The notes: generated by a model not told the origin, from the letters alone. Shown: positions 748 through 24,037, numbered from the stretch's first letter. The stretch: 64,000 bases of DNA from an uncultured Bdellovibrionales bacterium (GCA_964384235.1 CAYLJX010000001.1:241709-305708), one strand, 5' to 3'. A program made the numbers and translations.

Positions 748-880
748 TTAAACTTGTTGTTACTAAATATTACGGTTAGTGATTCTTCTACGATGTATCG
801 TGTATCAGGTATTACGTATTATGTATGAATGCATGGATTTGGATTTATACATGATACTTGATACAAAATACTTGATACGC

Positions 881-1417
881 CTACTTGACTGTCACTTTCG
901 CTGGTCGGACGACTCGTTCCCCTATCTTGTACCCGTTCTGAATGATTTTTACGACTACATGCTGCTCTCCCTCCGATTCCTCGCTGCTTACCGCTTCATG
1001 GATGGTGGGATCGAACGTGTCTCCTGGTTTTACTTCGATGGTCGTGACGCCGTTCTCGCTCAAGACCTTTTCCAATTGTTTCTCGATGTACTGGATACCG
1101 ACAACCCATGGACTCGATTTCTGTTCTTCCGGTACATGCTCCGTCGCGGCGCGAAAATTGTCCATGACAGGAATGATATCAAGAACGAGCTTTTCAATGA
1201 GCATACCACGGAGTTCTTTCTGTCCTTCAGCCTGCCGCCTCTTGTAGTTTTCAAATTCTGCCTGGAGACGCTTCAGATCGTTGAGATATTCCTGCGCGAG
1301 CTCCGTGTCGGTTTTTTCGGGTACTGACGTTTCCTCCTGCTTCATTTCCTGTTCGGTTTCTTCCGGTTTTTCTTCATGTTTCTTCTGATGGGTCATATCA
1401 CAAAACGTTAATGACAA
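881..1417 (-). CDS. grpE: Nucleotide exchange factor GrpE
   Basis: 178 aa. Acidic N-terminus then coiled coil (LKRLQAEFENYKRR) and C-terminal beta domain, typical of GrpE. Sits between hrcA and dnaK. Confidence 0.85.
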   Translation of the reverse strand: MSLTFCDMTHQKKHEEKPEETEQEMKQEETSVPEKTDTELAQEYLNDLKRLQAEFENYKRRQAEGQKELRGMLIEKLVLDIIPVMDNFRAATEHVPEEQKSSPWVVGIQYIEKQLEKVLSENGVTTIEVKPGDTFDPTIHEAVSSEESEGEQHVVVKIIQNGYKIGERVVRPAKVTVK

Positions 1418-2138
1418 TGATGAGAACGAGCGACGACGAGAGGAGTTTCTTCATGTATTCGATGAGGGATTTGTTCTTGGCGTAGTCCATGCGCTTGGGA
1501 CCGATGATGGCGAGCACGCCCTTGCCTTCCGAGCTATCATAGGGCGCGACGACCATCGAGCAGTTGGATATCTCTCGGATGGGGTTCTCTTCGCCGATGA
1601 AGATGCGCGTCTCACCGTCTTTGAGCTTGAGGAGGACGGCGTCGAGCTTTTCATCGAGGGTATCGAGCGTCTCAACGAGGCGGCAGAGCTCATCCATCTC
1701 CTGGAATTCCGGTTTCTCGATGAGTTCCTTCATGCCGAAGTCGTAGAACTCGTCTTTGTCGATGAGACCCGAGACGGCGAGGTTGCCGGAGAGAGCGGAG
1801 AGGAGCTTGGTGGTGCTGCGACCCATGCGCACTTCTCTTGCTTTCATCACGAGGAGTTCTTTTTGGAGGCGACGCTGCTCTTCGCGGGAGAGTTCCTCGT
1901 CCCCCATCATTTCCTCGACGTAGAAGCGGTACCCCTGGTCGGTCGGGATGCGGCCGGCCGAGACGTGCGGCTGGTAGAGGTAGCCTTCTTCCTCGAGAGC
2001 CATCATGTCGTTTCGGAGTGTGGCCGAACTCACCGGAAACTCGAAATGTTCGAGGAGAGCCTGCGACCCTACCGGGAGCGCGGTCTTGGTATAGAGCTCG
2101 ACGATCGCCGAGAGGACTTGTTTTTGACGGGAGTTCAT
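1398..2138 (-). CDS. hrcA: Heat-inducible transcription repressor HrcA
   Basis: 246 aa. N-terminal winged-helix stretch (RQKQVLSAIVELYTKTALPVGSQAL). CIRCE operator lies upstream. Overlaps grpE start by 20 nt. Confidence 0.85.
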   Translation of the reverse strand: MNSRQKQVLSAIVELYTKTALPVGSQALLEHFEFPVSSATLRNDMMALEEEGYLYQPHVSAGRIPTDQGYRFYVEEMMGDEELSREEQRRLQKELLVMKAREVRMGRSTTKLLSALSGNLAVSGLIDKDEFYDFGMKELIEKPEFQEMDELCRLVETLDTLDEKLDAVLLKLKDGETRIFIGEENPIREISNCSMVVAPYDSSEGKGVLAIIGPKRMDYAKNKSLIEYMKKLLSSSLVLIIVINVL

Positions 2139-2142
2139 ACTC

Positions 2143-2177
2143 GAGTGAGTAGTGAGTAGTTGATAGTGAGTAGAAAA
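2143..2177 (-). repeat. Tandem heptamer array in hrcA 5' leader (TAGTGAG x5 on + strand; CTCACTA on mRNA)
   Basis: gagtgag tagtgag tagttga tagtgag tagaaaa sits immediately 5' of the hrcA ATG. No Shine-Dalgarno sequence is present. Confidence 0.6.
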
Positions 2178-2192
2178 TGCCTGACTGAATAC

Positions 2193-2221
2193 AGTATAAA
2201 AAATGATTTAGCAGTCGTCAA
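2193..2221 (-). promoter_or_regulatory. Sigma70-like promoter of hrcA operon (TTGACG-17-TATACT), overlapping CIRCE
   Basis: On the minus strand the -35 TTGACG and -10 TATACT are 17 nt apart. The -35 lies inside the CIRCE spacer and right half. Confidence 0.55.
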
Positions 2222-2234
2222 GTATGAGTGCTAA
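2208..2234 (-). promoter_or_regulatory. CIRCE operator (HrcA binding site)
   Basis: Minus strand reads TTAGCACTC-ATACTTGAC-GACTGCTAA. This is the 9-N9-9 inverted repeat matching the CIRCE consensus TTAGCACTC-N9-GAGTGCTAA with one mismatch. Confidence 0.8.
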
Positions 2235-2300
2235 CCATTCAGGGTAAACGAAAGGCTCCGGATGCGTGCTGCGCGAGCGGAGCCTAAGCGGAAGTAGGAT

Positions 2301-2588
2301 TCATTCGATATCCGGAACACTGAAGATATCGGGATAGCGCGAATCCAGAGGGCTTATGCCTTGTCGGATTGCCTCTTCCCGCAGGGCAATGAGCCTAAGA
2401 CCCTTCTCCTGAGTCCTGAAAACAGGGTGGAGTTTCCTGAGTTCCTTCCGGTGCCACTTAGCCAGTTTTTCGTTGGTGCGCAGATGCCATCCGAGATAGG
2501 ATTTCACCGCGTCCTCACCGAAAAGCCTCATGACACTGATTACCGGACCAGGCGGAAGCATGTTGTACAGCAATCTCGTAAAGAACAT
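2301..2588 (-). CDS. Hypothetical protein (~95 aa) downstream of yidD
   Basis: Internal Met (MFFTRLLYNMLPPGP...) of ORF 2301..2774. The upstream part of that ORF overlaps yidD in another frame and is probably not coding. No recognisable family. Confidence 0.3.
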   Translation of the reverse strand: MFFTRLLYNMLPPGPVISVMRLFGEDAVKSYLGWHLRTNEKLAKWHRKELRKLHPVFRTQEKGLRLIALREEAIRQGISPLDSRYPDIFSVPDIE

Positions 2589-2632
2589 CTCACTCTCCTT
2601 CCTTCGATGAAACTTCGATTGGGAAACAGCTA

Positions 2633-2869
2633 TTACGGAACAGGGTCGTAGCCGCCGTCGTTCCAGGGGTGGCAGCGGAGGATACGTCTCAGTCCCAGGT
2701 ACGAACCGCGTATAACGCCGTGCCGTTCGATGGCCTCGTACGTGTACTGCGAGCACGTCGGGTGAAAACGACAAAACCGTTCCCCGAACACCATGCCGAT
2801 GACCCCGTGATCAAACGACAGGGTCTTCTGGTAGAGGCGTATGAGAAAGAGAACTGTTTTCTTCACCAT
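2633..2869 (-). CDS. yidD: Membrane protein insertion efficiency factor YidD
   Basis: Carries the motifs [17 protein letters not shown] and [17 protein letters not shown] characteristic of the YidD/haemolytic-domain family. Start taken at MVKKTVLF within ORF 2633..2917. Confidence 0.75.
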
Positions 2870-2897
2870 TTTTTGAGGATATTCGCTTGGAAAAGCT

Positions 2898-2925
2898 TTG
2901 TCAACAGGATAACGCATGGTATACT
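2898..2925 (+). promoter_or_regulatory. Candidate sigma70 promoter of corA (TTGTCA-16-TATACT)
   Basis: Hexamers read directly from the sequence upstream of the corA ATG at 2959. Confidence 0.45.
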
Positions 2926-2958
2926 TGCATCAAAACAGAGACAAAGAAAAACGGAATC

Positions 2959-3867
2959 ATGAAGATACTCAAGCACAAAACCATCACCTGGATCGATTTC
3001 GAGAATCCAGGCCAGGATGACATCATCTACCTCCAGGAGAACTTCAACATCCATCCTCTCGCGATCGAGGAGCTCGTCACGCCGACCTACCAGCCCAAGG
3101 TCGTCCAGTATGACGGGTGCCTGTTCCTTTCTATCCACATCCCCCTCTTCGACGTGGAGCACCGCACCACCTATCCGGGCGAACTCGATATCATCCTCAC
3201 CAACGACCACCTGATCACGAGCCACAAGCAGAGCATCTATCAGCTTTCGACCTTTCTCGACGAACTCATCAAGAGCGAAGGCAAACGCCGCCTGCACCTG
3301 GAAGACTCCCCGGCCCACCTCCTCCACCGTCTCGTTGAGATTCTCCTCAATTCCTGCTTTCCCAAGCTCAACCACATCGCAGAGAAGCTCGACTTCATCG
3401 AGTCACAGGTCTTCGCCGAGAAGGAAAAAGAGATGGTTTTCGAGATTTCCGTCCTCAAGCGCGATATCCTCAACTTCCGCCGAACGCTCAAACCGCAGCG
3501 TTCCATCTTCGAGTCCATCCTCCAGAAGGATCACCCGTTCATCCCAACCGAGACCAAGATCTACTTCCAGGACCTCATCGGTACCAATATCCGCCTGTGG
3601 AACCTCCTCGAAAGCCAGAAGGAGACCATCGAGGCCCTCGAAGCGACCAACAACTCCCTCCTCTCCAACAAGCTCGACCTCACGATGAAGGTTTTGACCA
3701 TCTTTTCCGCGGTCATGCTCCCCATGACGGCCTATTCCAACATGCTCGCCATGAGCGCGCAGATTCCTTTTGCCAACGTACCCTACGCCTTTTGGATCCA
3801 CGTCGTGATCATGCTGCTCATCTCGCTTATCACCATCACGATCTTCCGGTGGAAGAAGTGGTTCTGA
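2959..3867 (+). CDS. corA: CorA-family magnesium/cobalt transporter
   Basis: Cytoplasmic domain followed by two C-terminal TM helices around a YSNMLAMS motif (a variant of the GMN loop). Start chosen at MKILKHK within ORF 2887..3867. Confidence 0.7.
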   Translation: MKILKHKTITWIDFENPGQDDIIYLQENFNIHPLAIEELVTPTYQPKVVQYDGCLFLSIHIPLFDVEHRTTYPGELDIILTNDHLITSHKQSIYQLSTFLDELIKSEGKRRLHLEDSPAHLLHRLVEILLNSCFPKLNHIAEKLDFIESQVFAEKEKEMVFEISVLKRDILNFRRTLKPQRSIFESILQKDHPFIPTETKIYFQDLIGTNIRLWNLLESQKETIEALEATNNSLLSNKLDLTMKVLTIFSAVMLPMTAYSNMLAMSAQIPFANVPYAFWIHVVIMLLISLITITIFRWKKWF

Positions 3868-3872
3868 CGGGG

Positions 3873-3978
3873 ATGTAGCATGTATCTTGTATCAAGTATC
3901 ACGTATGGCCGCGACACGTCGCGGTTTCTGTTTGCCTTAAATGGCACACTTGATACATAATACCTAATACGTACTACC
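3873..3978. repeat. Palindromic NNGTATC-heptamer element flanking the corA terminator
   Basis: Left arm atgtatcttgtatcaagtatcacgtatg. Right arm cacttgatacataatacctaatacgtac. Each arm is about 4 tandem heptamers, and the arms are mutually inverted around the terminator hairpin. Confidence 0.6.
3906..3932 (+). terminator. Intrinsic terminator after corA
   Basis: Hairpin ccgcgac-ac-gtcgcgg followed by tttctgtttg. Confidence 0.6.
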
Positions 3979-3987
3979 TCAAACGCT

Positions 3988-5397
3988 ATGCGTTTCTACA
4001 ACACCCTCACCAAGCGAAAAGACGAGTTTCAGCCGCTCCATCCGGGCAAAGTCGGCATGTATGTCTGCGGTCCGACGGTCTACGACTATATCCATATCGG
4101 CAATCTCCGCGCGTACGTGTTCGCCGACACCTTACGCCGTGTCCTCGAGGATGCCGGCTATGAGGTACGGCTCATCAAGAACGTCACCGATGTCGGTCAT
4201 CTGACGGCCGACGATATCGCCCAGGGAGACTCCGGCGAGGACAAGGTCGCCCGCAAGGCGGAGGCGGAGCACAAGACGCCCGAGGAGATCGCCGCTTTCT
4301 ATGAAAGCTATTTCCATCAGGCGGAGGACGATATGAATATTGAGCCCGCCCAGTACTTTCCCCGTGCCACCGCCCACGTCAAACAGATGATCGCGCTCAT
4401 CGAGACGCTCATCGACAAGGGGCACGCCTATGAAAAGAACGGCAATGTCTTCCTCGACGTGACGACCTTCCCTGAGTATGGAAGGCTTTCCGGCAACACC
4501 CTGGAAAACCTGCAGGTCGGCGCGCGTCTCGAGGAGCATCCGGACAAGAAGAATCCTTGGGACTTCGCCCTCTGGCTCAAGGCGCCGGAGGGTCACCTCA
4601 TGCGTTGGCCGTCCCCGTGGAGCGAAGGGTATCCCGGCTGGCACATCGAGTGTTCGGCCATGAGTATGGAATACTTAGGCGATACGCTCGATATCCATAC
4701 CGGCGGCGAGGACAATATCTTCCCCCACCATGAGGCGGAGATCGTCCAGTCGGAAGGCGTGACCGGCAAACCCTTTGTCCGATACTTCCTCCATACGCGG
4801 CATATCCTTGTGAACGGCGAAAAGATGTCCAAGTCCAAAGGGAATTTCTACACGCTCGAGGACGTGAAGAATCGCGGCTACTCGCCGATGGATTTCCGGA
4901 TGCTTCTGGTCGCTTCCCACTACCGCACGCAGATGAACTTTACCTGGGAAAGCCTGGAGCAGGCCAAGAAAAACCGTGAAACGATGCTCGCAACGTATCG
5001 GCGTGTCCAAGAGGAGGGAACGAAGCTCCCCGGTGACGCGTTTCTCGGCAAGGAATACCTGGAACGTATCCGCACTACCCTCCAGGACGATCTCAACTCT
5101 CCCGAGGCGCTCGCGGTCGCGCTCGAACTCTGCAAGAAAACCAATACACTCCTCGATGCCAAGGAAGCCGTGAACATCAAGGCGGTCGCCAAGGTTTTTG
5201 AGATCGTCTTCTTTCTCTTCGGACTGAAGATCGAAGAAGAAACCATACCCGAAGAAATCACGCGGCTGGCCGAGGCGCGGGATACCGCCCGCAAGAACAA
5301 GGACTACGCGGAATCCGATCGGCTCCGCGACGAGATCGAGGCGCACGGCTACAAAGTGGAAGACGTCGATGGCGGCTTCCGGGTGAAGAAGGGGTGA
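3988..5397 (+). CDS. cysS: Cysteinyl-tRNA synthetase
   Basis: 469 aa class I aaRS. HIGN motif (YDYIHIGNLRAY), KMSKS motif (GEKMSKSKGNF) and zinc-binding cysteines. Confidence 0.95.
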   Translation: MRFYNTLTKRKDEFQPLHPGKVGMYVCGPTVYDYIHIGNLRAYVFADTLRRVLEDAGYEVRLIKNVTDVGHLTADDIAQGDSGEDKVARKAEAEHKTPEEIAAFYESYFHQAEDDMNIEPAQYFPRATAHVKQMIALIETLIDKGHAYEKNGNVFLDVTTFPEYGRLSGNTLENLQVGARLEEHPDKKNPWDFALWLKAPEGHLMRWPSPWSEGYPGWHIECSAMSMEYLGDTLDIHTGGEDNIFPHHEAEIVQSEGVTGKPFVRYFLHTRHILVNGEKMSKSKGNFYTLEDVKNRGYSPMDFRMLLVASHYRTQMNFTWESLEQAKKNRETMLATYRRVQEEGTKLPGDAFLGKEYLERIRTTLQDDLNSPEALAVALELCKKTNTLLDAKEAVNIKAVAKVFEIVFFLFGLKIEEETIPEEITRLAEARDTARKNKDYAESDRLRDEIEAHGYKVEDVDGGFRVKKG

Positions 5398-5463
5398 AAC
5401 GGGAGGAAAGGGAAGGAAAAGAGTGAAAGAGAAGTAAAGGGAATAACAACACGCAAAAATTAC

Positions 5464-5516
5464 AAAGGCGTTCCTCGTGCATCCAGCGGATGTTTTCGAG
5501 CAACGCCTTTTTGTTG
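5464..5516. terminator. Bidirectional stem-loop terminator between cysS and the convergent small gene
   Basis: 9-bp stem aaaggcgtt / aacgccttt, followed by T-runs on both strands. Confidence 0.45.
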
Positions 5517-5531
5517 CCGTGCAGAGTAGGC

Positions 5532-5795
5532 TCACTCCGTGGTCGCGGCCTTGAAGCAGGATTTCTGCCTGCCGCATAGGCGAATCGTCTGGAGAGCGAG
5601 GTTCCAATAGAACAACGGCTCCAGATTGAGGAGATTGAATTCCTCTCCTTTCGTCAGCGGCCGCTTGTAGGTTCTCCTGAACACATCGCCACCCTTGAGT
5701 CCCGTTTCGAACTTGTTTATCGTCACGGTAGCTTCCAGGAACGATCCTTCCAGTTCCTGTCCTTCTGACAAAACAGCTTGAGTTTGGCTCATCAT
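5532..5795 (-). CDS. Hypothetical small protein (~87 aa)
   Basis: Start MMSQTQAV is preceded by a GGGAG Shine-Dalgarno (agggagaacATGATG) and followed by a terminator. No family recognised. Confidence 0.4.
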   Translation of the reverse strand: MMSQTQAVLSEGQELEGSFLEATVTINKFETGLKGGDVFRRTYKRPLTKGEEFNLLNLEPLFYWNLALQTIRLCGRQKSCFKAATTE

Positions 5796-5875
5796 GTTCT
5801 CCCTCACAAAGGAACTGCATAAAAATCGTCTTGCATCATACCCCGGACCGGGAAAAAAGTCAATCTGAGGCATGA

Positions 5876-5904
5876 TTGTCATCGGCTTCAAGTCTCGGTA
5901 TAAT
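5876..5904 (+). promoter_or_regulatory. Near-consensus sigma70 promoter upstream of dnaB (TTGTCA-17-TATAAT)
   Basis: -35 and -10 hexamers are 17 nt apart. The predicted TSS lies only ~4-6 nt before the dnaB ATG, suggesting a leaderless or very short-leader mRNA. Confidence 0.5.
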
Positions 5905-5914
5905 GTATAGACTT

Positions 5915-7270
5915 ATGGCAAAGACTCCCGACCACGTGCGCGTCCCTCCTCATAACCTCGAAGCCGAGATGTCCGTGCTCGGCTCTTTGATGCTCGACAA
6001 GGACGCCATCATCAAGGTGGCCGACCTGCTCAAGGTGGGAGATTTCTACAAGGACGATCACAACCTGATCTACGAGACGATGCTTGCCCTCTATGAGGCA
6101 CGCGAGCCGATCGACGTCCTGTCGCTCGCCAATCGTCTCGAGGAAAAGGAGCAGCTCGAGCGCGTCGGCGGATCGAGCTATCTCGCCTCGCTCGTGAACA
6201 CCGTCCCCTCCGCGACCAACGTCGTCCACTATGCCAAAGTGGTCCAGAAGAAAGCGCTCCTGCGTCGTCTCATCACGGCAGCAAGCGATATCGTCGAGAT
6301 GGGATACGATGAGTCCGAGGACGTTCAGAAAACGCTCGACGAAGCCGAACAGAAGATCTTCCAGGTGTCCGAAAAGTACATCAAGCAGGACTTCGTACCG
6401 ATCAAGTCCATCCTGGAAGTCGCCTTCAACCGTATCGACGAGCTTCACAAGAGCGATCAGACGTTCCGTGGCGTACCGACGGCCTTTCCCGATCTCGACA
6501 ACCTGCTCGCCGGTCTCCAGAAATCCGACCTTATCATCCTGGCGGCCCGTCCGTCCGTCGGTAAGACGACCTTCGCGCTCGACATCGCCCGCCAAGTCGG
6601 TGTCCATGCCAAGATCCCGGTCGGTATCTTTTCCCTGGAAATGGGTGCCGATCAGCTGGTCGACCGTATGATCGCAGCCCAGGCCGGCGTCGATCTCTGG
6701 CGCCTTCGTACCGGCAAGCTCTCGAGCGAGGGTCCGAACAACGATTTCGAACGGATCTCCGACGCCATGGGTGTCCTTTCCGAGGCCCCGATCTTCATCG
6801 ACGATACGGGCTCGCTCAACATCATGGAGATGCGCACCATGGCGAGACGTCTCCAGGCCGAACATAAGCTCGGTCTCATCATCGTCGACTACCTCCAGCT
6901 CATGGAAGGCCGCAGCCGCTCCGGTGACAACCGCGTCCAGGAGATTTCCGAGATCTCCCGCGGTCTCAAGCAGCTCGCCCGCGAGCTCAATATCCCGCTC
7001 ATCGCCCTTTCCCAGCTCTCCCGTGCCGTGGAATCGCGCCCCGACCAGATCCCCAAACTCTCCGACCTGCGCGAATCCGGTTCCATCGAACAGGATGCCG
7101 ACGTGGTGATGTTCCTCTACCGCGAGGACCGCGTGAAACCGGATACTCCCAACAAGAACATCGCCGACGTCATCATCGCCAAGCACCGCAACGGCCCCGT
7201 CGGCAAGATCTCCCTCTACTTCGAGGACAATTCCACGACTTTCAAAAGCCTGGAAAAGATCCATGGGTAA
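5915..7270 (+). CDS. dnaB: Replicative DNA helicase DnaB
   Basis: N-terminal domain (PHNLEAEMSVLGSLML), Walker A (GARPSVGKTTFAL) and the RecA-like core. Start at MAKTPDH is an internal ATG of ORF 5876..7270; an alternative start is at 5903. Confidence 0.9.
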   Translation: MAKTPDHVRVPPHNLEAEMSVLGSLMLDKDAIIKVADLLKVGDFYKDDHNLIYETMLALYEAREPIDVLSLANRLEEKEQLERVGGSSYLASLVNTVPSATNVVHYAKVVQKKALLRRLITAASDIVEMGYDESEDVQKTLDEAEQKIFQVSEKYIKQDFVPIKSILEVAFNRIDELHKSDQTFRGVPTAFPDLDNLLAGLQKSDLIILAARPSVGKTTFALDIARQVGVHAKIPVGIFSLEMGADQLVDRMIAAQAGVDLWRLRTGKLSSEGPNNDFERISDAMGVLSEAPIFIDDTGSLNIMEMRTMARRLQAEHKLGLIIVDYLQLMEGRSRSGDNRVQEISEISRGLKQLARELNIPLIALSQLSRAVESRPDQIPKLSDLRESGSIEQDADVVMFLYREDRVKPDTPNKNIADVIIAKHRNGPVGKISLYFEDNSTTFKSLEKIHG

Positions 7271-7447
7271 GAATGAGCGAAAAATGTAAGGAATTTTTGC
7301 TTTTCGGAGTCTTGAAGATCCGGAAGCGGGCATGGTTCCGACTGGCAAGGAGGAGAGCGAAGGAGCTTCAGGAGTGAGGTTGCACGCCGGGCGACCGAGC
7401 GACTCCGAAAAGTACAAAATTCCTGAAATTTACACCAACAAAAAATC

Positions 7448-8044: not shown

Positions 8045-8097
8045 TTGCAAGACTAGAAAAATCAGTCCTTTGTCCAATCACAATTGTCGGAGGAGAT

Positions 8098-8386: not shown

Positions 8387-8420
8387 CCTGTCACACCGTC
8401 ATGGATCCAGGAGAACAAGA

Positions 8421-8496: not shown

Positions 8497-8498
8497 AG

Positions 8499-11392: not shown

Positions 11393-13348
11393 CTATTCGT
11401 CTTTCCCCGGTTCGACGATGACGGTTACCCGGCCGGCTGATTTGGGAATCGTAGAAGTGAAGAAATTCGGATGGAAGGACACTTCGATCTTCTCGATCTC
11501 GGGAAAGCTCCCGAGGGTTTCCCTGATACCGTCCTCGTCCTGTCCTAGGAGGGCGTCCCGTACCCGCTCGCTCTCGATGATCGACTCCAGGAGGATATCC
11601 GCATGCACCTTGAGCCGGAGCGTCCCCTTGGGGAAATCCGGCAGAGCCTCGCCGTAGCGGAGATCTATCGACTTGGGAGCGAACTTCACGCCGCGAACCT
11701 CCTTGGTGTATTCCTTGGTGATCGATTCCCGGATAGCCTGCTCCGAATACACGAATGCTTTCACGTGGTAACGCTGTCGATAGTCGAAGCTGCTTCCGAC
11801 CGTACCGACCTGAGGCAGGGCGGCCTCATTGAGCGGAGTCATCTCCATCGCTTCTTCCAGGATCTTCTCTCCGGGGTTGAGCTTCTCACTTATGGCCTTC
11901 ACGAAGGCTTCCTGGGCCTGTTTCTTCCCGTCCGTTTCGGCCTTTTCCAGATCGGCTTTGGAAATGACCAGGGTATCCGATCCGCCCTCGCCGCCGCCGG
12001 TAAAGGCCTTCACTGATTTGGCGGAGAACTTGCCATATTTGGGACTCCCCTTGAATCCGGGGATGGTGAAGGTGCTCGGGCCGACATTGTATTCCGAACC
12101 CGACTGATCGGCGACCACTGAGGCTTCTATGGCACCGGGCTCCTGTTTGCCTGCGGTCGTGGTCATCCCGGGAACGGTCACCCCTTCGGTCAGGCGGAAG
12201 ATTTTCCCGTCCGTTTCCAGGCGAGTCGTCGCCACCAGGGGTTGCGGATCGGCGGAATATTCATTGTAAATGACGACCGTACCGCGAGCCTTGTGATTGG
12301 CTGCACCAGATTTCCCGGTGGCCGCGACGGACAAGGCGACTTCCTGGTCTCCTTCCACGACTCGGACGGCGAGCCTGTCGTTCTCGAAAACGGTATCCGC
12401 GCTCTCAGTCACCGTATGGGGTGTCACGAAGATTTCCGCCTTGGGAAGGAAGAGGAAGACCCCGACACCGATCAGAGAAAGCAGGGAAATACCGCCGAGA
12501 ATGAAGATGATGGATTTGGCCTTGTGATGGACATGGGGCGGAATGGGCGCTCCTTCGGTAGGAGCCTTGTTCGGTAGTGACGGCATGGCCGGTGCTTTTT
12601 TCGGAAGAATCGCCTGTCCGTTCCCGTTGCTGAAAAAATTCTTGAGTCGTTCGCCTCGATCGCTAAGTGGTTGCTCGGCAGGACGTTCCGGCAGTCTCGT
12701 CGGCCGCTCCATGGGTTTTGCCTGGATCTCCGGCCGTACCTGCTGATACGGAGAGACGGTGTTCTGAGGAGGAACACTTGCCCGTTCCGCCTCTTGTTTT
12801 TTGGTCATTTCTTCCATGTAGCGCGTGGAATTGAGACTGGTCTGCTTGGCTGGTGAAGCGTTGCGGATACGAAGCGTCTGGGGCTGTGGAACAGAAGGAG
12901 TCATCCTTTGCTCCGGTGCCGGTTGAGTCTGTGAAGGAGATACTTCCGGGGAGGCGTAGAAGTTGGAGGAGCCGATATTCTCGGAGCGAGGGATGTACTC
13001 ACGTACGTCTTTTGTTTCTTCCGAAACGATGCGTTCGTTTCCTTCGGACGCCTGGTATGGTGAGATTTCCACCCGTTCGTTCTTCTGGGAGAAGTCCTCG
13101 GTATACTGCTCCGTCTCGATGCCAGCCTTGTCCGCTAGATTCCGTCCGATCTCATCCTGAGTGACGATCACGATCTTCTTGCCGAGCTTTTCCGCCTCGC
13201 GCTGAAAGAGGCGCAGATTGACGATGCTCTGCAGGACAAGCGCCCGTTTCGGAAAGACGAAGGTGTTTTCCTCTGAACTCGATTTGCGCAGACGGCCGAT
13301 GACCGAGATGATCTCCTCGTCGGATTCGATGTAGAAAGTCTGTGGCAT
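11393..13348 (-). CDS. Bitopic membrane protein: N-terminal cytoplasmic domain, Pro/Gln-rich linker, one TM helix, large extracytoplasmic domain
   Basis: 651 aa. TM helix IIFILGGISLLSLIGVGVFLFL near residue 270. Immediately downstream of the FtsA-like ATPase. No FtsZ motif (GGGTGTG) is present. Confidence 0.55.
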   Translation of the reverse strand: MPQTFYIESDEEIISVIGRLRKSSSEENTFVFPKRALVLQSIVNLRLFQREAEKLGKKIVIVTQDEIGRNLADKAGIETEQYTEDFSQKNERVEISPYQASEGNERIVSEETKDVREYIPRSENIGSSNFYASPEVSPSQTQPAPEQRMTPSVPQPQTLRIRNASPAKQTSLNSTRYMEEMTKKQEAERASVPPQNTVSPYQQVRPEIQAKPMERPTRLPERPAEQPLSDRGERLKNFFSNGNGQAILPKKAPAMPSLPNKAPTEGAPIPPHVHHKAKSIIFILGGISLLSLIGVGVFLFLPKAEIFVTPHTVTESADTVFENDRLAVRVVEGDQEVALSVAATGKSGAANHKARGTVVIYNEYSADPQPLVATTRLETDGKIFRLTEGVTVPGMTTTAGKQEPGAIEASVVADQSGSEYNVGPSTFTIPGFKGSPKYGKFSAKSVKAFTGGGEGGSDTLVISKADLEKAETDGKKQAQEAFVKAISEKLNPGEKILEEAMEMTPLNEAALPQVGTVGSSFDYRQRYHVKAFVYSEQAIRESITKEYTKEVRGVKFAPKSIDLRYGEALPDFPKGTLRLKVHADILLESIIESERVRDALLGQDEDGIRETLGSFPEIEKIEVSFHPNFFTSTIPKSAGRVTVIVEPGKDE

Positions 13349-14670: not shown

Positions 14671-14705
14671 CAGTGAACAGCTAACAGGAAACAGTTAACA
14701 GTATT
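14671..14705 (-). repeat. Tandem heptamer array (CAGNNAA x5 on + strand) in the leader of the FtsA-like gene
   Basis: cagtgaa cagctaa caggaaa cagttaa cagtatt lies between the pfkB stop and the FtsA-like ATG. No Shine-Dalgarno sequence. Confidence 0.55.
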
Positions 14706-15746: not shown

Positions 15747-15766
15747 GGTTTTGTTTTTATGTGATA

Positions 15767-17044: not shown

Positions 17045-17271
17045 AAGCGTTCGGAATCAATTATTTTTATGTTCCCTCCACCTTGCTCTTTTCTCGACCC
17101 GCTCACTCACTCCCATACCATATCTGGTACCTATGTATCCTCAGTGGTCGTTTTGTTCGCTTAGTACAAATTTTGTCTTTGAGAAAAACAAAAGTCTTTC
17201 GGCACAAAATTTGTAAAATTCTCGAAAAGCCAAGGTGTTCAGGAACAAGAAATTCTTCTGTCCAGTATATC

Positions 17272-18321: not shown

Positions 18322-18343
18322 AGACCTTAGTATTTTAAACGTC

Positions 18344-19471
18344 TTAATTCAGATATTTCGAGAAATGCTTGCCCATCCCGAGAATCCCGATCATGACTCC
18401 GACGAGGGCGGTCATCGCCGTGAAGACCCAGGCGCGCATGACGATCTTGGGCTCCGGCCAACCTTTGGCCTCGAAGTGATGATGCAAGGGTGCTGCGAGG
18501 AAGAGTTTGCGTTTGAAGAATTTCTTGCTCATGAGCTGTAGCGCCACGCTCCCCGATTCGAGAACGTAGATAAACACGATGATAAACAATACCAGTGCGG
18601 AATCGGTCAGCATGGCTACCACGCCGAGCGTCGTTCCCAGGGAAATGGCACCGGTATCACCCATGAAGAAGCGCGCCGGATAGATATTGAACCAGAGGAA
18701 CGCGAGGAGCGCGCCGGAAATGGCGGCACAGAACGCCGCAAGGTCCACCCTGTTCTGAAGGAACGCGATAAGCGCGAATGATGCGAACGCGATGAGAAGT
18801 ACCCCGCCGTTCAACCCGTCGAGACCATCCGTCTCGTTAGAGGAAATGGCCGTGAAGAGGATGACAAAGAGAAAGAGCGGGATATACCACCACCCGATGG
18901 AAAAATCACCGACCGCCGGCACGTGGATCTTGTCCCAACCGAGCTTTTCATAGAACCACCAGGCACCGCCTCCCGCGATGGCAAAGAGCCACCAGAAACG
19001 GTAGGCGAACCGCATCCCGCCGCCCTTGTTGCTCCCATAGCCGCGCACGCTCATGTAGTCGTCAAGAAGCCCCAGGATACCAGCTGAAACGAGGAAAAAA
19101 AGCGGCAGCCAGACCTGGGAACGTCGCAGGAAATCCAGACGGGCGATGAAGTTGGTATCGGTCCAGGTCGCGATGATCGGAAAAAGATAGTGGGAGAGAT
19201 AGACGAGGATGAGTACCGATACCCAGACCAGGAACCCTCCCATAGTCGGCGTCCCGGACTTGCAGGCATGGAGCTTGCTCACATACGTGAGCTTCTCGCC
19301 GTTGACGTCGTTCTTCTTGATCTTGATGCCGATCTTTTTCTGATAGAGAAGATGCGTCCACAGAGGAGTCAAAAAGAATGCCAATAAAAAAGCCAGGAGC
19401 CCGGTCGTGAGCACCTTCATGACATTGATGACTTCGGGAATGTTTTGGACCTGAGCTATCTGAAACTCCAT
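18344..19471 (-). CDS. mraY: Phospho-N-acetylmuramoyl-pentapeptide transferase MraY
   Basis: 375 aa polytopic protein. CKSGTPTMGG motif and Asp-rich loops typical of MraY. Confidence 0.9.
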   Translation of the reverse strand: MEFQIAQVQNIPEVINVMKVLTTGLLAFLLAFFLTPLWTHLLYQKKIGIKIKKNDVNGEKLTYVSKLHACKSGTPTMGGFLVWVSVLILVYLSHYLFPIIATWTDTNFIARLDFLRRSQVWLPLFFLVSAGILGLLDDYMSVRGYGSNKGGGMRFAYRFWWLFAIAGGGAWWFYEKLGWDKIHVPAVGDFSIGWWYIPLFLFVILFTAISSNETDGLDGLNGGVLLIAFASFALIAFLQNRVDLAAFCAAISGALLAFLWFNIYPARFFMGDTGAISLGTTLGVVAMLTDSALVLFIIVFIYVLESGSVALQLMSKKFFKRKLFLAAPLHHHFEAKGWPEPKIVMRAWVFTAMTALVGVMIGILGMGKHFSKYLN

Positions 19472-19472
19472 A

Positions 19473-20498
19473 TCATTTCCAAGAAAAGGTCTGGAAACTC
19501 CAATTGAACATCGATCGCACGCTCTCCCACCGGTATTGATCGTCGAGCACCACGGCGACTACCTTGTGCTCCCGGGAAGGATCGGCGGCAACAGCCAAGA
19601 GCGACCGTCCCGCGAGCGGGGTGAACCCGGTCTTCGTCCCGATCAGGTTCGGCATCTGTCCCAAGAGCTCATCCGTATTGAAAATCTCGTGGCTGTAGCG
19701 ACCGTCTATCGAATAGATGTTCTGCTTCTCCATCCGCATCATATCCCAAAGAGTATCGTGCTTCAAGGCTTCGGCGGTGATTCGCGCGATATCGCGGGCG
19801 GACGAATAGCACTCATGCTCGCGACCGTCCGGCTCGAGACCGGAGGGTGTACAGAAGTGCGAATTCTCCAGACCGAGCTCCTTGGCGCGGTCGTTCATGA
19901 TCCTGGCGAAGCCCTCCTGCGTCCTCCCGAGGTGCTTGCCGAGAGCGATCGCCGCGTCATTGGCGCTGTTCATGAGCGCCGCCTTGAGGAGGTCGCGGAC
20001 CGTGAGACGTTCCCCGACCTTGAGGCGTTCGCCGTTGCAGAATCCGGAACGCGGACAGCCGACACGTGTCCCCTCGGCATAGACCGCCTCCTCATCAATG
20101 GTGACGGCCTCATCGAGGTTCCCGATCTGCTCCATGACGATAGTCGCCGTGAAGATCTTGGTGAGTGAAGCGATCTGGCGCCGGTCGTCGGCGTTGTGTC
20201 CATACAGGAGACGCCCCGAATCCGTATCCAGGATGGCCGAGGCATGGGCAGTCGGAACAGCAAAACCGGAAGTCGGATATTTCGGTACCGGCTGGAACGC
20301 TGTCGCCATCTCGCGGCTTTCCGCCACGAACGGCAGGAGTTTTTCCTCCTTCGGTCCATCAAAGCGCCTGGTTTCATCGCTCTCACCCGAAAGCAATGAA
20401 AAAATACCGGCACCGCGCGCTTTCAGTGCGCCGCCGTTCTCCATGACGAACCATCCGAGAACACCAAGGACGATAGTGATACCGAGAAATACTCTCAT
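19473..20498 (-). CDS. dacA: D-alanyl-D-alanine carboxypeptidase (S11 peptidase, PBP5/6-like)
   Basis: Active-site SxxK (ASLTKIF), SxN (SANDAA) and KTG motifs. N-terminal signal/TM segment. Confidence 0.8.
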   Translation of the reverse strand: MRVFLGITIVLGVLGWFVMENGGALKARGAGIFSLLSGESDETRRFDGPKEEKLLPFVAESREMATAFQPVPKYPTSGFAVPTAHASAILDTDSGRLLYGHNADDRRQIASLTKIFTATIVMEQIGNLDEAVTIDEEAVYAEGTRVGCPRSGFCNGERLKVGERLTVRDLLKAALMNSANDAAIALGKHLGRTQEGFARIMNDRAKELGLENSHFCTPSGLEPDGREHECYSSARDIARITAEALKHDTLWDMMRMEKQNIYSIDGRYSHEIFNTDELLGQMPNLIGTKTGFTPLAGRSLLAVAADPSREHKVVAVVLDDQYRWESVRSMFNWSFQTFSWK

Positions 20499-20499
20499 A

Positions 20500-21132
20500 T
20501 CATTCTTTTTCCGTTTCCTTTATCTCTTGCACGCTGTCGACACTTTTTCCTGTCTCCGGATGAGATTCACCGGAAACCTCCTCCACTCCCTCCAGGATGA
20601 CCTTGAGCCGTTCATCCTGGGAAAGCGTCTCATACTCAGGCAGGTCTTTCGTTCCGGAAAGTCCGAGCACCTGGAGCAGACGAAAGGACGGCTGATAGAC
20701 ATACCCGCGGGCATCATGAGGATTCCCCTGACGCTCGATGAGGTCACGGAGGAGGAGGTTTCGGAGCGTGAAGCTGCAGTTCACGCCACGGATTGCCTCG
20801 ATCTCGGAGCGGGTGATGGGCGCACGATAGGCGATGATGGCGAGCACTTCGAGACCGGCTTTGCTCAAGTTTTCCGAAAGCGTCGACTTGGTGAGATCCT
20901 CGACCGCCGCAGCATTCTCCGGCTTGGTCGCGAGCATCACCTGATCGCCCTTCTCCATGAGCATGAGTCCCCGTTCCTCGTCGGCGGCATATTTCTCCTT
21001 GAGCGCACCGACCGCCTCGCGCAGCTCGCTCTCAGGGATGCGAAGCGTCTTCATGAGACGCGTGAACGAGAGCGCTTCGCCGCTCACGAAGAGAAGCGCT
21101 TCCAAGGATGAGAGAAGGTGTTTTTTTTCCAT
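20500..21132 (-). CDS. scpB: Segregation and condensation protein B
   Basis: 210 aa tandem winged-helix protein (LEALLFVSGEAL..., SRSEIEAIRGVN). Confidence 0.8.
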   Translation of the reverse strand: MEKKHLLSSLEALLFVSGEALSFTRLMKTLRIPESELREAVGALKEKYAADEERGLMLMEKGDQVMLATKPENAAAVEDLTKSTLSENLSKAGLEVLAIIAYRAPITRSEIEAIRGVNCSFTLRNLLLRDLIERQGNPHDARGYVYQPSFRLLQVLGLSGTKDLPEYETLSQDERLKVILEGVEEVSGESHPETGKSVDSVQEIKETEKE

Positions 21133-21143
21133 AGGGGGAGATT

Positions 21144-21899
21144 TCAGACGTTCGCTTTTTCAGGACGCTTGAGGATGATGTCTGCGAAAAAATGCTTCTG
21201 TTCGACGAAGATGAACCGCTGCTTGACGAGCTCCAGGACCGCGAGGAACGAAACGATGATGTCTACGGTGTTCTCGGCGCCCTTGGTAAGTTCCGAAAAG
21301 GACGTCTCGATCCGATCGGCGAGCGTGCCCTGAAGCGTCAGGATCTTTTCTTCCAGGGTGATGACACGTTCCAGTTCCTTTTCCGGCAGTTCCTCAAACA
21401 CCGGTATCTCGCCGAGCACATCGAGGAAGTGTCCCTTGAGGGACTCTGCCGTCAGATCCTTGGGCGGATAGAAGACGACCTGCGTCCCGAGAAAACTCTC
21501 CCGGGCGAAAGCACCCCGCGAACGAAGCATCTCAATCCCCATCTTCTGCGCCGCCTCCCGGAAATACTTGTACAGTTTGAGTCTGGTCTCGAGATCATCC
21601 ATCGCCTCTTCCTCGTCGTCGCTGAATTCCAGGACCGGCAGAAGTGCGCGTGATTTGATCAGGATGAGGCGCGCCGCGATGGAGAGAAACGAGGCGAGAC
21701 TCTCCAGGGAGATGGACCGTTCCTCCTCGATGTACTTGAGATACTGGTCGGCCACCTGCGCCAGACTCACCTGGGTGATATCGAGCTTTTCCTTTTCGAT
21801 AAGCGAAAGCAGAAGGTCGAGCGGCCCTTCGAACTGATCAAGACGGAAATGGTAAGGCATAGCAAAAAAAGACACCGGATGTCTTTTGTAGTGTACCAT
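21144..21899 (-). CDS. scpA: Segregation and condensation protein A
   Basis: FEGPLDLLLSLIEKEKLDITQVSLAQVADQY, the ScpA/kleisin N-terminal signature. Immediately upstream of scpB. Confidence 0.8.
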   Translation of the reverse strand: MVHYKRHPVSFFAMPYHFRLDQFEGPLDLLLSLIEKEKLDITQVSLAQVADQYLKYIEEERSISLESLASFLSIAARLILIKSRALLPVLEFSDDEEEAMDDLETRLKLYKYFREAAQKMGIEMLRSRGAFARESFLGTQVVFYPPKDLTAESLKGHFLDVLGEIPVFEELPEKELERVITLEEKILTLQGTLADRIETSFSELTKGAENTVDIIVSFLAVLELVKQRFIFVEQKHFFADIILKRPEKANV

Positions 21900-21907
21900 T
21901 TTTCTTG

Positions 21908-23092
21908 TTACGAAGCCAATTCCCGTTCACTCTCCGTGTCCTCGAGGGCGAAAGCAGAAAGGAGAGAAAAGGAGAGCATGAGCGCCACGATGAAGAAAAG
22001 CCCCTGGACCGGCAGGAAGACAAGGAAAACGGCCGATACCAGAGCACCGACGATATTTGCCACCGGGCGGGCGGTCCGGAAGAAGGCGATGACATCCATG
22101 TCGTTCCCGTCGATCTGCTTGTAGAAATACGAGTCGCGCAGGATCTCGATGCCGGCGATACCGACACGCGTGAGAAAGAGCGCCCCGCCCCACACGAAGA
22201 GACTGGTCGAATCCAAGAATCCGAGCACAGCCGTCGCCCCCAGGACGATACAGAGACTCCCGATGATGAGCTCCTTTTCTCCGAAGCGTTTGTCCGCCAA
22301 GACACCGAGCGGGTACTGCAGGAACACGAACGGCAGAAGCATGATGGTGAAGATGATACCGATGTCGTGCCACGCGAAATCCAGGGATCGCAGGTAGATC
22401 GGCATGTAGACGATCATGATGGCATAGAAGAACTCCATGCCGAAGGAGACATGGTAGATCCGAAGGAGATTTTTCTCCCGGAGCATCTTGGTCAGGGTCT
22501 CGCGCAGACGAAGCCGCTCCTGGAACACGGCGTTGTCCCGCCGGAACCCCAAGAGCGTGATGAGAAACACGACGATGTACCCCAGCACAAGGAAAAAGAA
22601 TATCCCCGAGTACCCGTACCGCTCCAGCGCCACCGTCGAGAGGAACGGTGAGAGCAGGAGTCCGGCATTCATGATGGTGAGGTAGAGACCGCGGATACGT
22701 CCGGAAAGTTGGTCTTTGGAAAAGCTCTCCAAGAGGATGTCGAGCGCCACCCAGGTTGTGTTGGAGACGATGATGAAAACGAGCATGACCACGATGCCTG
22801 TCCATGCGACGGAGAGATGAGACAGGAGCGTGCTCGCCATGATAAGAAGCGCGAGGCAGAAGAGTAGGATCCGGACCTTGCCCACGCTCCGGATGAGCGG
22901 CTGGAGGAAGAAGAGCGTCATGAGGACGCCGCCGTAAGCGATGAGATAGAACACCCCGACGTTCTCGCTCCCGGACGCTTCCGCGAAATACGTCGAGAGA
23001 ACGTAGATGAGAAAGGCGTCCAAGAAACCAAAAAGAGACGATACCAGGCTTACCAATCGTACCTTGTTCTTGTTGAAATTCTCGGAATGCAT
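21908..23092 (-). CDS. MFS transporter
   Basis: 394 aa with 12 predicted TM helices and MFS-like loop motifs. Confidence 0.75.
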   Translation of the reverse strand: MHSENFNKNKVRLVSLVSSLFGFLDAFLIYVLSTYFAEASGSENVGVFYLIAYGGVLMTLFFLQPLIRSVGKVRILLFCLALLIMASTLLSHLSVAWTGIVVMLVFIIVSNTTWVALDILLESFSKDQLSGRIRGLYLTIMNAGLLLSPFLSTVALERYGYSGIFFFLVLGYIVVFLITLLGFRRDNAVFQERLRLRETLTKMLREKNLLRIYHVSFGMEFFYAIMIVYMPIYLRSLDFAWHDIGIIFTIMLLPFVFLQYPLGVLADKRFGEKELIIGSLCIVLGATAVLGFLDSTSLFVWGGALFLTRVGIAGIEILRDSYFYKQIDGNDMDVIAFFRTARPVANIVGALVSAVFLVFLPVQGLFFIVALMLSFSLLSAFALEDTESERELAS

Positions 23093-23134
23093 TTTTGTTT
23101 TTCTAAAAAGCTAAGAAGCTAACGAAGCTACAAG
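23093..23134 (-). repeat. Tandem TAGCTTn repeats in the MFS-gene leader
   Basis: Minus strand reads caaatagcttgtagcttcgttagcttcttagctttttag directly before the MFS ATG. Confidence 0.45.
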
Positions 23135-23575
23135 CTATTTGAGGCATCCAGCCTTGTATCCTCGCTTCTCGGCGTCTTCTTTGGCTGCGAAACACACTCT
23201 GTTCTCCGGTTTGATCCGCTTGGCGCAGGAACTGCTCGGGAGGTGGTACTTGTCGGAATTACGACTGCCGACGAACGCGCACTGTCCCTGCTTCGAAGCC
23301 GTCTCCGTGCCCGACTTCACGACTCCGGAAGAAAGATCTCTTGTCGGATTTTCTGATCCCTGACCCCTCACACCTGACCCCTGTTCAGGAGCGCTCGGGA
23401 TCTCGATCAGGAGCGGCTTGGTTTCCGTTCCCTTTCCTTGGATGAATCCCCCGCCGAATGACAAAGCACCTACCGCCAGAAGGCCAAAAAACAGGAATAT
23501 CCTGTCTTTTCTCTCGGACAGCCACTGTTTCACCCGAAACAGCCTTTCTTTCATTCTTTCGTACAGGTCTTTCAT
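23135..23575 (-). CDS. Membrane-anchored protein with C-terminal Ada-like Zn-binding domain
   Basis: N-terminal TM helix (IFLFFGLLAVGALSF). C-terminus CAFVGSRNSDKYHLPSSSCAKRIKPENRVCFAAKEDAEKRGYKAGC matches the Ada_Zn_binding pattern (YH.psC...eN..fF...eeA...Gy..C). Confidence 0.5.
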   Translation of the reverse strand: MKDLYERMKERLFRVKQWLSERKDRIFLFFGLLAVGALSFGGGFIQGKGTETKPLLIEIPSAPEQGSGVRGQGSENPTRDLSSGVVKSGTETASKQGQCAFVGSRNSDKYHLPSSSCAKRIKPENRVCFAAKEDAEKRGYKAGCLK

Positions 23576-23591
23576 ACCGGAGAGAAGCGGA

Positions 23592-23619
23592 ATTGACAGA
23601 GTGGCGGAATATGCTATAC
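23592..23619 (+). promoter_or_regulatory. Candidate sigma70 promoter of rpmA (TTGACA-16-TATACT)
   Basis: Plus strand reads attgacagagtggcggaatatgctatact, about 40 nt upstream of the ATG. Confidence 0.5.
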
Positions 23620-23657
23620 TTTTCCAGTATACAGAAGTTCAATAAGGTGTAAATACT

Positions 23658-23939
23658 ATGGCAACCAGAAAAGCAGGCGGTTCTACCAGTCTCGGCCGTG
23701 ATTCGATTTCCAAGCGTCTCGGAGTCAAGATCTACGGCAACCAGCTCGCGGAAAGCGGCAATATCCTCGTCCGTCAGCGCGGGACCAAGTTCCACGCGGG
23801 CAAGAACGTGAGCCGTGGCGAAGACGACACCCTTTTCGCGCTCATTTCCGGAGTCGTCGAGTTCCAGACCCGCAAGGTCAAGGACTTCACTGGCAAGCTC
23901 GTCTCCCGCACCTTCGTGAACGTCCTTCCGAAGAAGTAG
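23658..23939 (+). CDS. rpmA: 50S ribosomal protein L27
   Basis: [29 protein letters not shown]...[14 protein letters not shown] matches L27. Confidence 0.95.
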
Positions 23940-23943
23940 AGAT

Positions 23944-24037
23944 CAGTATTGTGTATTTTGTATCAGGTATCTTGTCAAAAAACCGGCCTCAGCCGGTTTT
24001 TTGTTTCTGCAATACGTAATACTTGATACAAGATACA
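23944..24037. repeat. Palindromic NNGTATC-heptamer element flanking the rpmA/pyrG convergent terminator
   Basis: Left arm tattgtgtattttgtatcaggtatcttgtc. Right arm aatacgtaatacttgatacaagatacatcatg, close to the reverse complement of the left arm. The terminator hairpin sits between the arms. Confidence 0.6.
23975..24005. terminator. Bidirectional intrinsic terminator (rpmA + / pyrG -)
   Basis: aaaaaa-accggc-ctca-gccggt-tttttg. Confidence 0.65.

Follow-up and report, generated by a model that had tools for sequence, protein, structure and literature searches.

Heptanucleotide arrays with an invariant GTAT core at gene ends and inside envelope genes of a Moranbacteria-like chromosome, possible phased recognition sites

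Among the repeat systems described so far, the closest to the one reported here is the family of GGGAATC (GGGNATC) heptamers of Xanthomonas, with about 185 arrays per genome, mostly intergenic and of unknown function (Rehm et al., 2015, PMC4692102). Each genome has 70-75 convergent inverted pairs of them, and the paired or single state is usually preserved between species, with lengths that vary (PMC4692102). More generally, in the accounts of Mrazek et al. (2007) given in PMC4679880 and PMC4692102, heptanucleotides are the most abundant class of long simple sequence repeats (SSRs) in many genomes, and slippage has been proposed as their origin. The TAACTGA repeats of marine Beggiatoaceae, cyanobacteria and Bacteroidetes occur in two to six copies at gene boundaries (MacGregor, 2015, PMC4679880). 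Some of them fall, in frame, within peripheral regions of proteins, and S1, Csp or CsrA have been put forward as the binder, RNA-binding OB-fold proteins being among the proposals (PMC4679880). We have analysed a stretch of 64,000 nucleotides (hereafter the window; GCA_964384235.1, CAYLJX010000001.1:241709-305708, filed under an uncultured Bdellovibrionales bacterium), which carries arrays of another heptamer, NNGTATY, some of them single and direct and some facing each other in four inverted elements that we call E1 to E4. Literature searches on GTATC heptads or on repeats of the candidate phyla radiation (CPR) found nothing specific.

Like the Xanthomonas heptamers, those of the window form short head-to-tail arrays of a 7-nt unit, with convergent pairs close together on opposite strands. 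The two families differ in that the GTATY core is not G-rich, that the host appears to be a CPR bacterium and that copies lie in frame inside genes. NNGTATY has one G per unit and no G-quadruplex potential; the G-rich, quadruplex-capable unit is a feature of the Xanthomonas and Nostoc units and not of the architecture. Counting also the conservation of the in-gene copies, the contrast between core and spacers and the recurrence of the core across phyla, the GTATY family is distinct by five features. With heptanucleotide SSRs at large, and with the cyanobacterial repeats of Calothrix and Nostoc, it shares the predominance of period 7, a sporadic phylogenetic distribution and a proposed origin by slippage. 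It differs from the general SSRs by its short arrays (4-5 units), heterogeneous spacers, invariant core and retention at orthologous sites, and this retention points to constraint and not to mere hypermutability. The TAACTGA arrays, for their part, are nearly always direct and lie upstream of start codons, whereas GTATY arrays follow stop codons and come mostly as convergent pairs.

In the window, GTATCNNGTATC with at most one mismatch has 31 matches against 2.2 expected, and there are 11 phased NNGTATY arrays of at least three units against 0.23 in dinucleotide shuffles. A convergent pattern (two units, a gap and two inverted units) matches E1 to E4 only, with 0 expected in the window, and the divergent order of GTATY units has no match there, all the inverted elements (4/4) being oriented 5'-GTATY...RATAC-3'. 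Three of the array sites are intergenic and four intragenic; each arm of E1-E4 has 4-5 units and the direct arrays have 4-4.7. Over 37 units, positions 3-6 read GTAT and are essentially invariant, with 3 of 148 bases deviating; the seventh base is C in 19 units and T in 14, and positions 1 and 2, the first mostly A and the second mostly T, are both variable. The earlier note on this DNA had described an internal 7-nt periodicity combined with inverted symmetry, and a true repeat family of NNGTATY units is indeed what we find. With high confidence, these are lineage-expanded heptanucleotide arrays of unit NN-GTAT-Y on a Moranbacteria-like (CPR) chromosome, with the direct array as the basic module and each "palindrome" a pair of arrays that face each other across a short centre or a terminator. 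We are equally confident of where they lie, either directly at stop codons or within permissive loops of envelope genes. The window contains housekeeping and envelope-biogenesis genes, and the nearest named homologues of its GrpE, its family 4 glycosyltransferase (GT4) and its PyrG are all proteins from metagenome-assembled genomes (MAGs) labelled "Candidatus Moranbacteria/Moraniibacteriota", names that point to a Moranbacteria-like host.

The reading that we rank first, tentatively and knowing that it could well prove wrong, is that slippage-born heptad arrays have been retained as phased recognition sites for a putative factor at gene ends. A core kept at a 7-nt phase, free spacers, blocks of about four units and a polarity are together the signature of such sites. 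The arrays would be born and resized by replication slippage, and at fixed loci purifying selection keeps the 4-5-nt core at a strict 7-nt phase as the 2-nt spacers drift, which is the step that the data show. One subunit of a sequence-specific nucleic-acid-binding factor would sit on each heptad, and a functional unit would comprise about four heptads in a row; alternatively, an RNA-binding OB-fold or TRAP-like protein might act on (NNGUAUY)n. Inward-facing arrays between a stop codon and a terminator may mark or insulate gene ends and modulate the formation of 3' ends, pairing of the two arms being possible and secondary. A protein that reads DNA in this manner has been described: omega/ParB of pSM19035, of the ribbon-helix-helix (RHH) type, places a single dimer on each 7-bp WATCACW heptad, accepts direct as well as inverted heptads, and is fully active only on four or more of them in a row (PMC9499535). 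The arrays of the window likewise repeat a 7-bp unit whose 5-bp core is conserved and whose edges are degenerate, in direct or inverted order and in runs of at least four contiguous units. However, omega arrays are contiguous and lie at promoters of a plasmid partition and copy-control operon, with the protein encoded adjacent, whereas those of the window are chromosomal, lie at gene ends or within genes and are split by a centre, and there is no RHH protein among the window's open reading frames (ORFs; small ones included, E <= 0.1).

The three intergenic elements of the earlier note, between grpE and dnaK (E1, 793-880), corA and cysS (E2, 3873-3978) and rpmA and pyrG (E3, 23944-24038), can be read directly at these places. 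E3 has four units, a centre and four inverted units: an rpmA-side array (23944-23971), a terminator (23977-24002) and a pyrG-side array (24011-24038) that has 1 nt in common with the pyrG stop codon. The flanking genes are convergent, with L27 (rpmA) at 23658-23939(+) and PyrG at 24038-25687(-), so that each of them is followed by a GTATY array on its sense strand and then by a common bidirectional terminator. The centre, A6-CCGGC-CTCA-GCCGG-T6, forms a 12-bp hairpin on both strands; this terminator rests on the fold, and a simple terminator scan did not list 23977-24002. At the centre of E2 a terminator-like hairpin (3907-3926) is followed by a T-rich tail that reaches 3936, and there is also a small second hairpin. 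A G+C-rich hairpin with a U-tract is thus present in the centres of E2 and E3, two of the three as the earlier note had said, and absent from those of E1 and E4.

This anatomy bears on a rival explanation of the REP/BIME kind (repetitive extragenic palindromes, bacterial interspersed mosaic elements). The arms would pair in RNA or in single-stranded DNA, through 5-bp helices separated by 2x2 internal loops, and the hairpin would strengthen termination, block 3' exonucleases or give a processing site, with the periodicity as a relic. We judge it somewhat unlikely. Since the terminators of E2 and E3 lie between the arms, RNA ended there would carry the proximal arm only, which makes a simple 3'-end-stabilising hairpin unlikely at these two sites; of the very long RNA hairpins proposed by the earlier note, the ability of the arms to fold stands and the general role in stabilising 3' ends does not. 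A relative argues in the same direction. In locus L344 (from the same genome as locus L139, used below; PyrG 83% identical to that of the window) the rpmA stop is directly followed by AAGTATC ACGTATT TCGTATC ATGTATC AAGTATA (12118-12150) and then by a non-homologous terminator hairpin, with no partner array beyond it and no array at pyrG. Between the rpmA arrays of the window and of L344 the core is identical at 16/16 positions and the spacers at 2-3/8, in a genome where GTATY arrays are otherwise rare (2 in ca. 43 kb). The unit of conservation is the single heptad array, and a single arm conserved after rpmA speaks against a long RNA hairpin.

Folding itself is on the side of pairing. RNA of E1-E4 folds at -18 to -42 kcal/mol, with z of -4.0 to -9.3 against shuffles, as long interrupted stems, and in E3 there are 20 contiguous pairs, spacers included; the full elements can thus fold into the long hairpins that the earlier note thought possible, though interrupted ones. 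The right arm is not the exact reverse complement of the left one, as had been claimed, and is instead an inverted array with 58-71% Watson-Crick complementarity (up to 83% with G-T pairs), essentially through the cores. Against the hairpin, by our own count, spacer complementarity (ca. 13/36) is at the chance level for the composition, and at the variable positions the two arms of an element are no more similar to each other than to foreign arms (mean score 5.0 vs 6.9). Besides, in each of the three unidirectionally transcribed copies (E1, E2 and E4) RNA of the sense strand forms a weaker fold than its antisense counterpart. E1 gives -20.9 kcal/mol in the sense (- strand) and -35.6 on the + strand (z -4.0 and -7.1), and the folds of E2 are at -36.2 and -41.2 kcal/mol. 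Arms from separate elements weakly share an order of units (ATGTATC-TTGTATC-AAGTATY-ACGTATK; p = 0.018 by permutation), which hints at a common descent of the arms.

The family does not end with the three intergenic copies, which were confirmed; to them we add a fourth inverted element, E4, and three direct arrays, so that the recurrence that the earlier note had asked about is already seen within the window. E4 (43821-43888; arms 43821-43855 and 43861-43888, 5-nt centre) falls within the 5' portion of a GT4 gene (42749-43978, - strand), in its reading frame, where it encodes EYHVSGITYQGNTKYKIQDTRYI. The cluster GT4-Wzy-GT4-LytR-GT2-CtpB-Cpn10 is syntenic in five relatives, with GT4 ca. 65% identical, and the orthologous position of L139, L140, L221, L222 and L223 carries E4 in each case, which makes six lineages with that of the window. 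Where a column has a conserved amino acid, all six lineages agree on the codon in 6/9 cases within E4 and in about 10% of cases over the remainder of the gene; for residues with two-fold degeneracy the figures are 5/8 and 7/62 (p = 0.003). This excess of conservation at synonymous sites indicates constraint at the nucleotide level. A scan of metagenomes with the GT4 alignment found only generic GT4 homologues, at most 47% identical. A GT4 homologue (P0150) has, at columns ca. 295-315 of alignment A1, a long linker insert reading ...SGLDPESRKSNLDSRLRGNDK..., which we take to resemble the peptides made when intergenic repeat elements are translated, and it is another sign that the GT4 linker tolerates repeat insertions.

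RNAalifold on the six E4 sequences gives 5-bp helices made of cores only, separated by 2x2 loops; 94.7% of the cells are paired and three pairs have changed on both sides (e.g., GTATT:AATAC to GTAGT:ACTAC), as expected of a hairpin. Taken alone this covariation is marginal, reached by 18 of 500 shuffles, and the intermediates do not favour G.U over C.A (4 vs 4). Covariation was considered as proof that the arms of E4 pair and had to be dropped, as it is significant only when E4 is pooled with the adjacent palindrome HP1, to which the strength of the pooled test is due. HP1 (43888-43914, - strand) is a 12-bp perfect palindrome of GTTAAC type, CCGTTAAC TTTT-ACA-AAAA GTTAACGG, that abuts E4 in the GT4 coding sequence and encodes T-A/V-N-F-L-Q-K-L-T. 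It belongs to a different repeat family and forms with E4 one conserved structured block. In the six lineages 6 of its 12 pairs have changed on both sides, several of them through paired synonymous changes and none one-sidedly; 97% of the cells are paired, and none of 500 shuffles attains what is observed. This strong covariation next to E4 can be counted for the hairpin. HP1 has no G.U intermediates, which suggests a symmetry at the DNA level more than an RNA helix, in other words a protein site or correction by template switching.

The three direct arrays lie in the same cluster. A perfect (TTGTATC) x4.3 at 43208-43237(+) falls in the interdomain linker of GT4, read KIQDTRYKIQ on the - strand, and is a candidate slippage tract; a perfect (GTATCAT) x4 at 42003-42031(-) lies in a gene resembling Wzy/O-antigen ligase (41163-42752, -); and AGCTTGT x4.7, with the variant core GTAGC, is found at 43599-43631(+) in the GT4 gene, read SYKLPATSYKL. 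At the orthologous Wzy site L139 has (GTATATC) x4 (11927-11955), direct and non-foldable, with the GTAT core kept. That direct arrays cannot fold and still keep the core at orthologous sites is a further argument against the long RNA hairpin. The GT4 linker has a heptamer array of about four units in every lineage (L139 10725-10757; L140; L221 3022-3044; L222 1612-1642), with a unit that differs by lineage (AAGATAC, GAACAGN, AACAGNN, AACTAAC, GAATCAG). At the 43599-43631 site L221 has (ACAAGCT) x4.3, and L140 and L222 have other heptamers.

For the perfect arrays of GT4 and Wzy only, another reading is that of contingency switches, in which the gain or loss of one 7-nt unit would shift the frame and turn envelope-glycan genes off or on. 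We regard it as possible though on balance doubtful, and it is compatible with the other readings and does not exclude them. As in known contingency loci, surface-polysaccharide genes contain perfect tandem repeats of a unit whose length is no multiple of three, here at 42003-42031, 43208-43237 and 43599-43631, and relatives keep arrays of differing units at corresponding places. The Logan contigs L136 and L138 are from separate runs and break off at 43234 and 42005, positions that fall in or at the two perfect arrays; these are two of the five Logan contig ends in the 9-kb region (p ~6e-4), which suggests heterogeneity or loss of coverage there. However, no length variant was seen among the Logan contigs, which come from different runs, the break points misfit a simple polymorphism of plus or minus one unit at k = 31, four units are short for high slippage rates, and an identical full-length protein exists in another assembly (P0121). 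Only the three direct in-gene arrays fit this model, E1-E4 being degenerate, crossed by assemblies without trouble and not obviously hypermutable. Phase variation at the perfect in-gene arrays is a lead, not a finding.

To examine the architecture elsewhere, we searched bacteria, each species being represented by a single genome, for runs of four GTATY units in phase and obtained at least 120 loci in many phyla; the same pattern in viral contigs gave at least 119 loci, which served as a control for orientation. Among the 120 bacterial loci listed, 19 have an inverted partner no more than 200 nt away; the pair is convergent in 16 and divergent in 3 (p = 0.004). Adding the four of the window to these listed loci gives 20 convergent against 3 divergent (p = 0.0005). 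Either order gives the same duplex, and hence the convergent bias does not come from helix stability and is left without explanation by the hairpin. There are no inverted partners among the 119 viral loci listed (p ~2e-6 vs the 19 among 120 listed in bacteria), which indicates that pairing is a property of bacterial chromosomes and not automatic for such arrays, a contrast that can also be quoted in favour of the hairpin. So can the appearance of the convergent elements of other phyla, which look like those of the window, with matching arm lengths and centres mostly of at most 30 nt.

Convergent NNGTATY arrays are seen in Gemmatimonadota, Bacteroidota, Gammaproteobacteria, Acidobacteriota, Calditrichota, Saccharibacteria and Moranbacteria. 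Of the 16 convergent elements found elsewhere, 9 are not spanned by any long stop-free frame, and several of these 9 start or end 0-12 nt from such a frame. Rfam recognized no family in these 16 loci beyond tRNA matches, and its covariance models matched only tRNA in the window too, leaving the heptamer arrays without a family. A wider claim, that convergent NNGTATY arrays are a cross-phylum cis-element of gene boundaries, read at a 7-nt phase by a widespread putative heptad-binding protein or enzyme, with the core under purifying selection even in coding sequence and the orientation reflecting the polarity of the factor, is in our opinion decidedly unlikely as it stands.

Several observations weigh against phased recognition sites and have to be set beside those that carry them. 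The contrast between core and spacers is in part a matter of ascertainment, because arrays are recognized by their cores. The elements fold well, and the pair-preserving double changes of E4, though few, are there. No candidate binding protein was found, the window having no RHH protein, transposase or REP-associated tyrosine transposase (RAYT) among its ORFs. Positions in coding sequence and at 3' ends are unusual for operators, and the arms are 5-60 nt apart, unlike the contiguous heptads of omega. Across phyla, a rule by which the sense array would follow a stop codon was tried and does not reach significance (22 vs 12, p = 0.12). Finally, the genome has several other heptamer families of 5+2 type, with five fixed bases and two free (AACAG/CTGTT, GAATA, CTGAC, TGTTG), each of which would need its own factor, and this favours a general mutational process. 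Binding arrays for a repeat-recognizing protein, which the earlier note had listed as one option, are nevertheless the best fit to the invariant core, the free spacers and the orientation, even if the protein was not found in the window.

That general mutational process is the substance of a further alternative, in which the arrays have no function. Heptanucleotide slippage would be the main insertion mutation, arrays would gather where they are tolerated, and inverted copies would arise and become symmetrical by template switching at hairpins. The abundance of heptanucleotides among long SSRs in many genomes, with the slippage proposed for it (Mrazek et al., 2007, in the account of PMC4679880), fits well here. 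Period 7 is the commonest tandem period of the window (13 of 42 Tandem Repeats Finder rows, against 54 of 397 in 572 kb of unrelated metagenome contigs), and it predominates in close relatives as well, with many unrelated units. Perfect arrays exist and contigs break at them, the heptamer of the GT4 linker differs in every lineage, the elements fill entire intergenic gaps and E1 is absent from relatives. We nevertheless consider this explanation unlikely. Active slippage homogenizes the units and neutral decay hits all positions, so that heterogeneous spacers with intact cores would not be expected from either. Long-term retention at orthologous sites with constraint at synonymous sites is not expected either, the orientation bias is left without explanation, and viral contigs with the same arrays have no inverted partners among the loci listed.

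The left arm of E1 (793-827) reads ATGTATC GTGTATC AGGTATT ACGTATT ATGTATG, the centre (828-845) is of 18 nt without a terminator, and the right arm (846-880) is an inverted array that ends GATACGC. It follows directly the grpE stop codon (881-883, - strand) and precedes a 51-nt spacer to dnaK, in the - strand order hrcA-grpE-E1-dnaK (GrpE 881-1417(-), DnaK start 741(-)). In relatives with GrpE 64-71% identical the grpE-dnaK spacer is of 47-59 nt and resembles the 51-nt non-element part, and no GTATY arrays were found in ca. 57 kb of their sequence. E1 is therefore an 88-nt lineage-specific addition, flush with the grpE stop. On the opposite side of this region, a 266-aa ORF at 28-828(+) has a strong match to the Pfam family NAD-GH (PF10712), which we regard as spurious and not as a gene, as the dnaK (HSP70) frame runs on the other strand.

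E2 lies on the + strand between CorA (2887-3867, +) and CysS (3988-5397, +), starting 5 nt after the corA stop and ending 9 nt before the cysS ATG, with a left arm (3873-3907) of ATGTAGC ATGTATC TTGTATC AAGTATC ACGTATG and a right arm at 3944-3978. Both E1 and E2 are spanned by assemblies without breaks. A promoter-like site inside E2 (3932-3961) was set aside, since such sites are at chance level (4 found vs 2.4 expected). Contig L002, 98% identical, was likewise discarded as evidence of strain variation in E2: all 51 of its 51 differences lie in the last 220 nt, inside dnaB. For 2.7 kb this contig matches the window exactly, after which it diverges in dnaB (L002 ca. 2680-2902, window 6022-6240), with 44 of the 51 differences at third codon positions, which indicates either a strain mosaic or recombination boundary or a chimeric assembly.

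Resemblance to mobile elements, either REP/BIME or miniature transposable elements with inverted repeats (MITEs), was also suggested by the earlier note and fails on the features tested. Like REP/BIME, the elements are intergenic, at 3' ends, in inverted pairs with stem-loops and often beside terminators. However, each REP is an imperfect palindrome of 20-40 nt with a GTAG-type 5' tetranucleotide and is linked to a RAYT, whereas here each arm is a direct heptamer array and only the pair is palindromic, and GTAGC is just an occasional core variant (3875-3879, 43604-43629). A MITE-like or foldback element, with terminal inverted repeats made of transposase-binding heptamers and the transposase encoded elsewhere, is highly improbable. 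It would account for the fixed inward orientation of the arms, for the weakly shared order of their units and for E1, which resembles an 88-nt addition to a conserved spacer. The in-frame presence in genes recalls the Rickettsia palindromic elements. On the other hand there are no target-site duplications or defined termini, the flanks of E1-E4 sharing no direct repeats and the edges of the arrays fading, and the copies are far from identical, with different spacers, sizes and centres and only the core and the weak unit order in common. There are single arms and direct arrays as well, E4 and the rpmA array are old and have stayed in place, and the window has no transposase.

Other short-period repeats and structures of the window deserve mention. 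Arrays of CTGTT+NN (TTAACTG-like), at 14671-14702(-) and 49430-49494(+), end no more than about 5 nt from the start codons of an FtsA-like gene and of a GT4-family gene, respectively, TTAACTG being near-identical to TAACTGA and here directly upstream of two start codons. The unit is one base from the TAACTGA repeats found upstream of start codons (PMC4679880); the 49430-49494 array is itself an inverted pair, and the unit also occurs in the relative L140 (4591-4619). There are (GAATA+NN) x7 directly upstream of secA (35419-35467), (AGTGAGT) x4 directly upstream of hrcA (2144-2173), (TGTTG+NN) x4 within the C-terminal linker of SecA (32866-32895) and (CTGAC+NN) x4 at 23353-23383, together with an array of the octamer AAGCTAAG between two - strand genes (23103-23130). 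Two inverted octamer (GTTAACGR) elements of unit GTTAACGG/GTTAACGA (48038-48131 and 48383-48459) end just upstream of an ATG in the region of UDP-glucose dehydrogenase and GT2, and an array of the same octamer is found in L139 (6481-6509). A long inverted repeat at 29554-29728, unrelated in sequence to the heptamer family, has 65-nt arms (74% complementary) and a 45-nt centre in a 282-nt intergenic gap. The tRNA gene at 30564-30634(-) has a 24-nt inverted partial self-copy at 30491-30514 (92% complementary), with a perfect 19-bp hairpin (30516-30559) between the two; the whole (30491-30634) may be the remnant of an integration site or a terminator. Outside the window, L071, a low-GC Moraniibacteriota MAG (UBA12142), carries convergent GTATT/GTATC arrays at 185-217(+) and 594-626(-), ca. 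380 nt apart.

Heptamer arrays are thus a known class that has remained functionally unexplained, and what this chromosome adds is evidence for constraint together with a rule of orientation, which makes the question testable. The question is whether such arrays are slippage noise or functional, and there are three handles on it: a core fixed at a 7-nt phase with spacers that drift, an orientation rule that goes beyond the stability of a hairpin, and a paired architecture that is found in distant phyla and not in the viral contigs listed. CPR bacteria are thought to live attached to host cells, and in the envelope-glycan genes of one of them the perfect arrays flag possible slippage switches.

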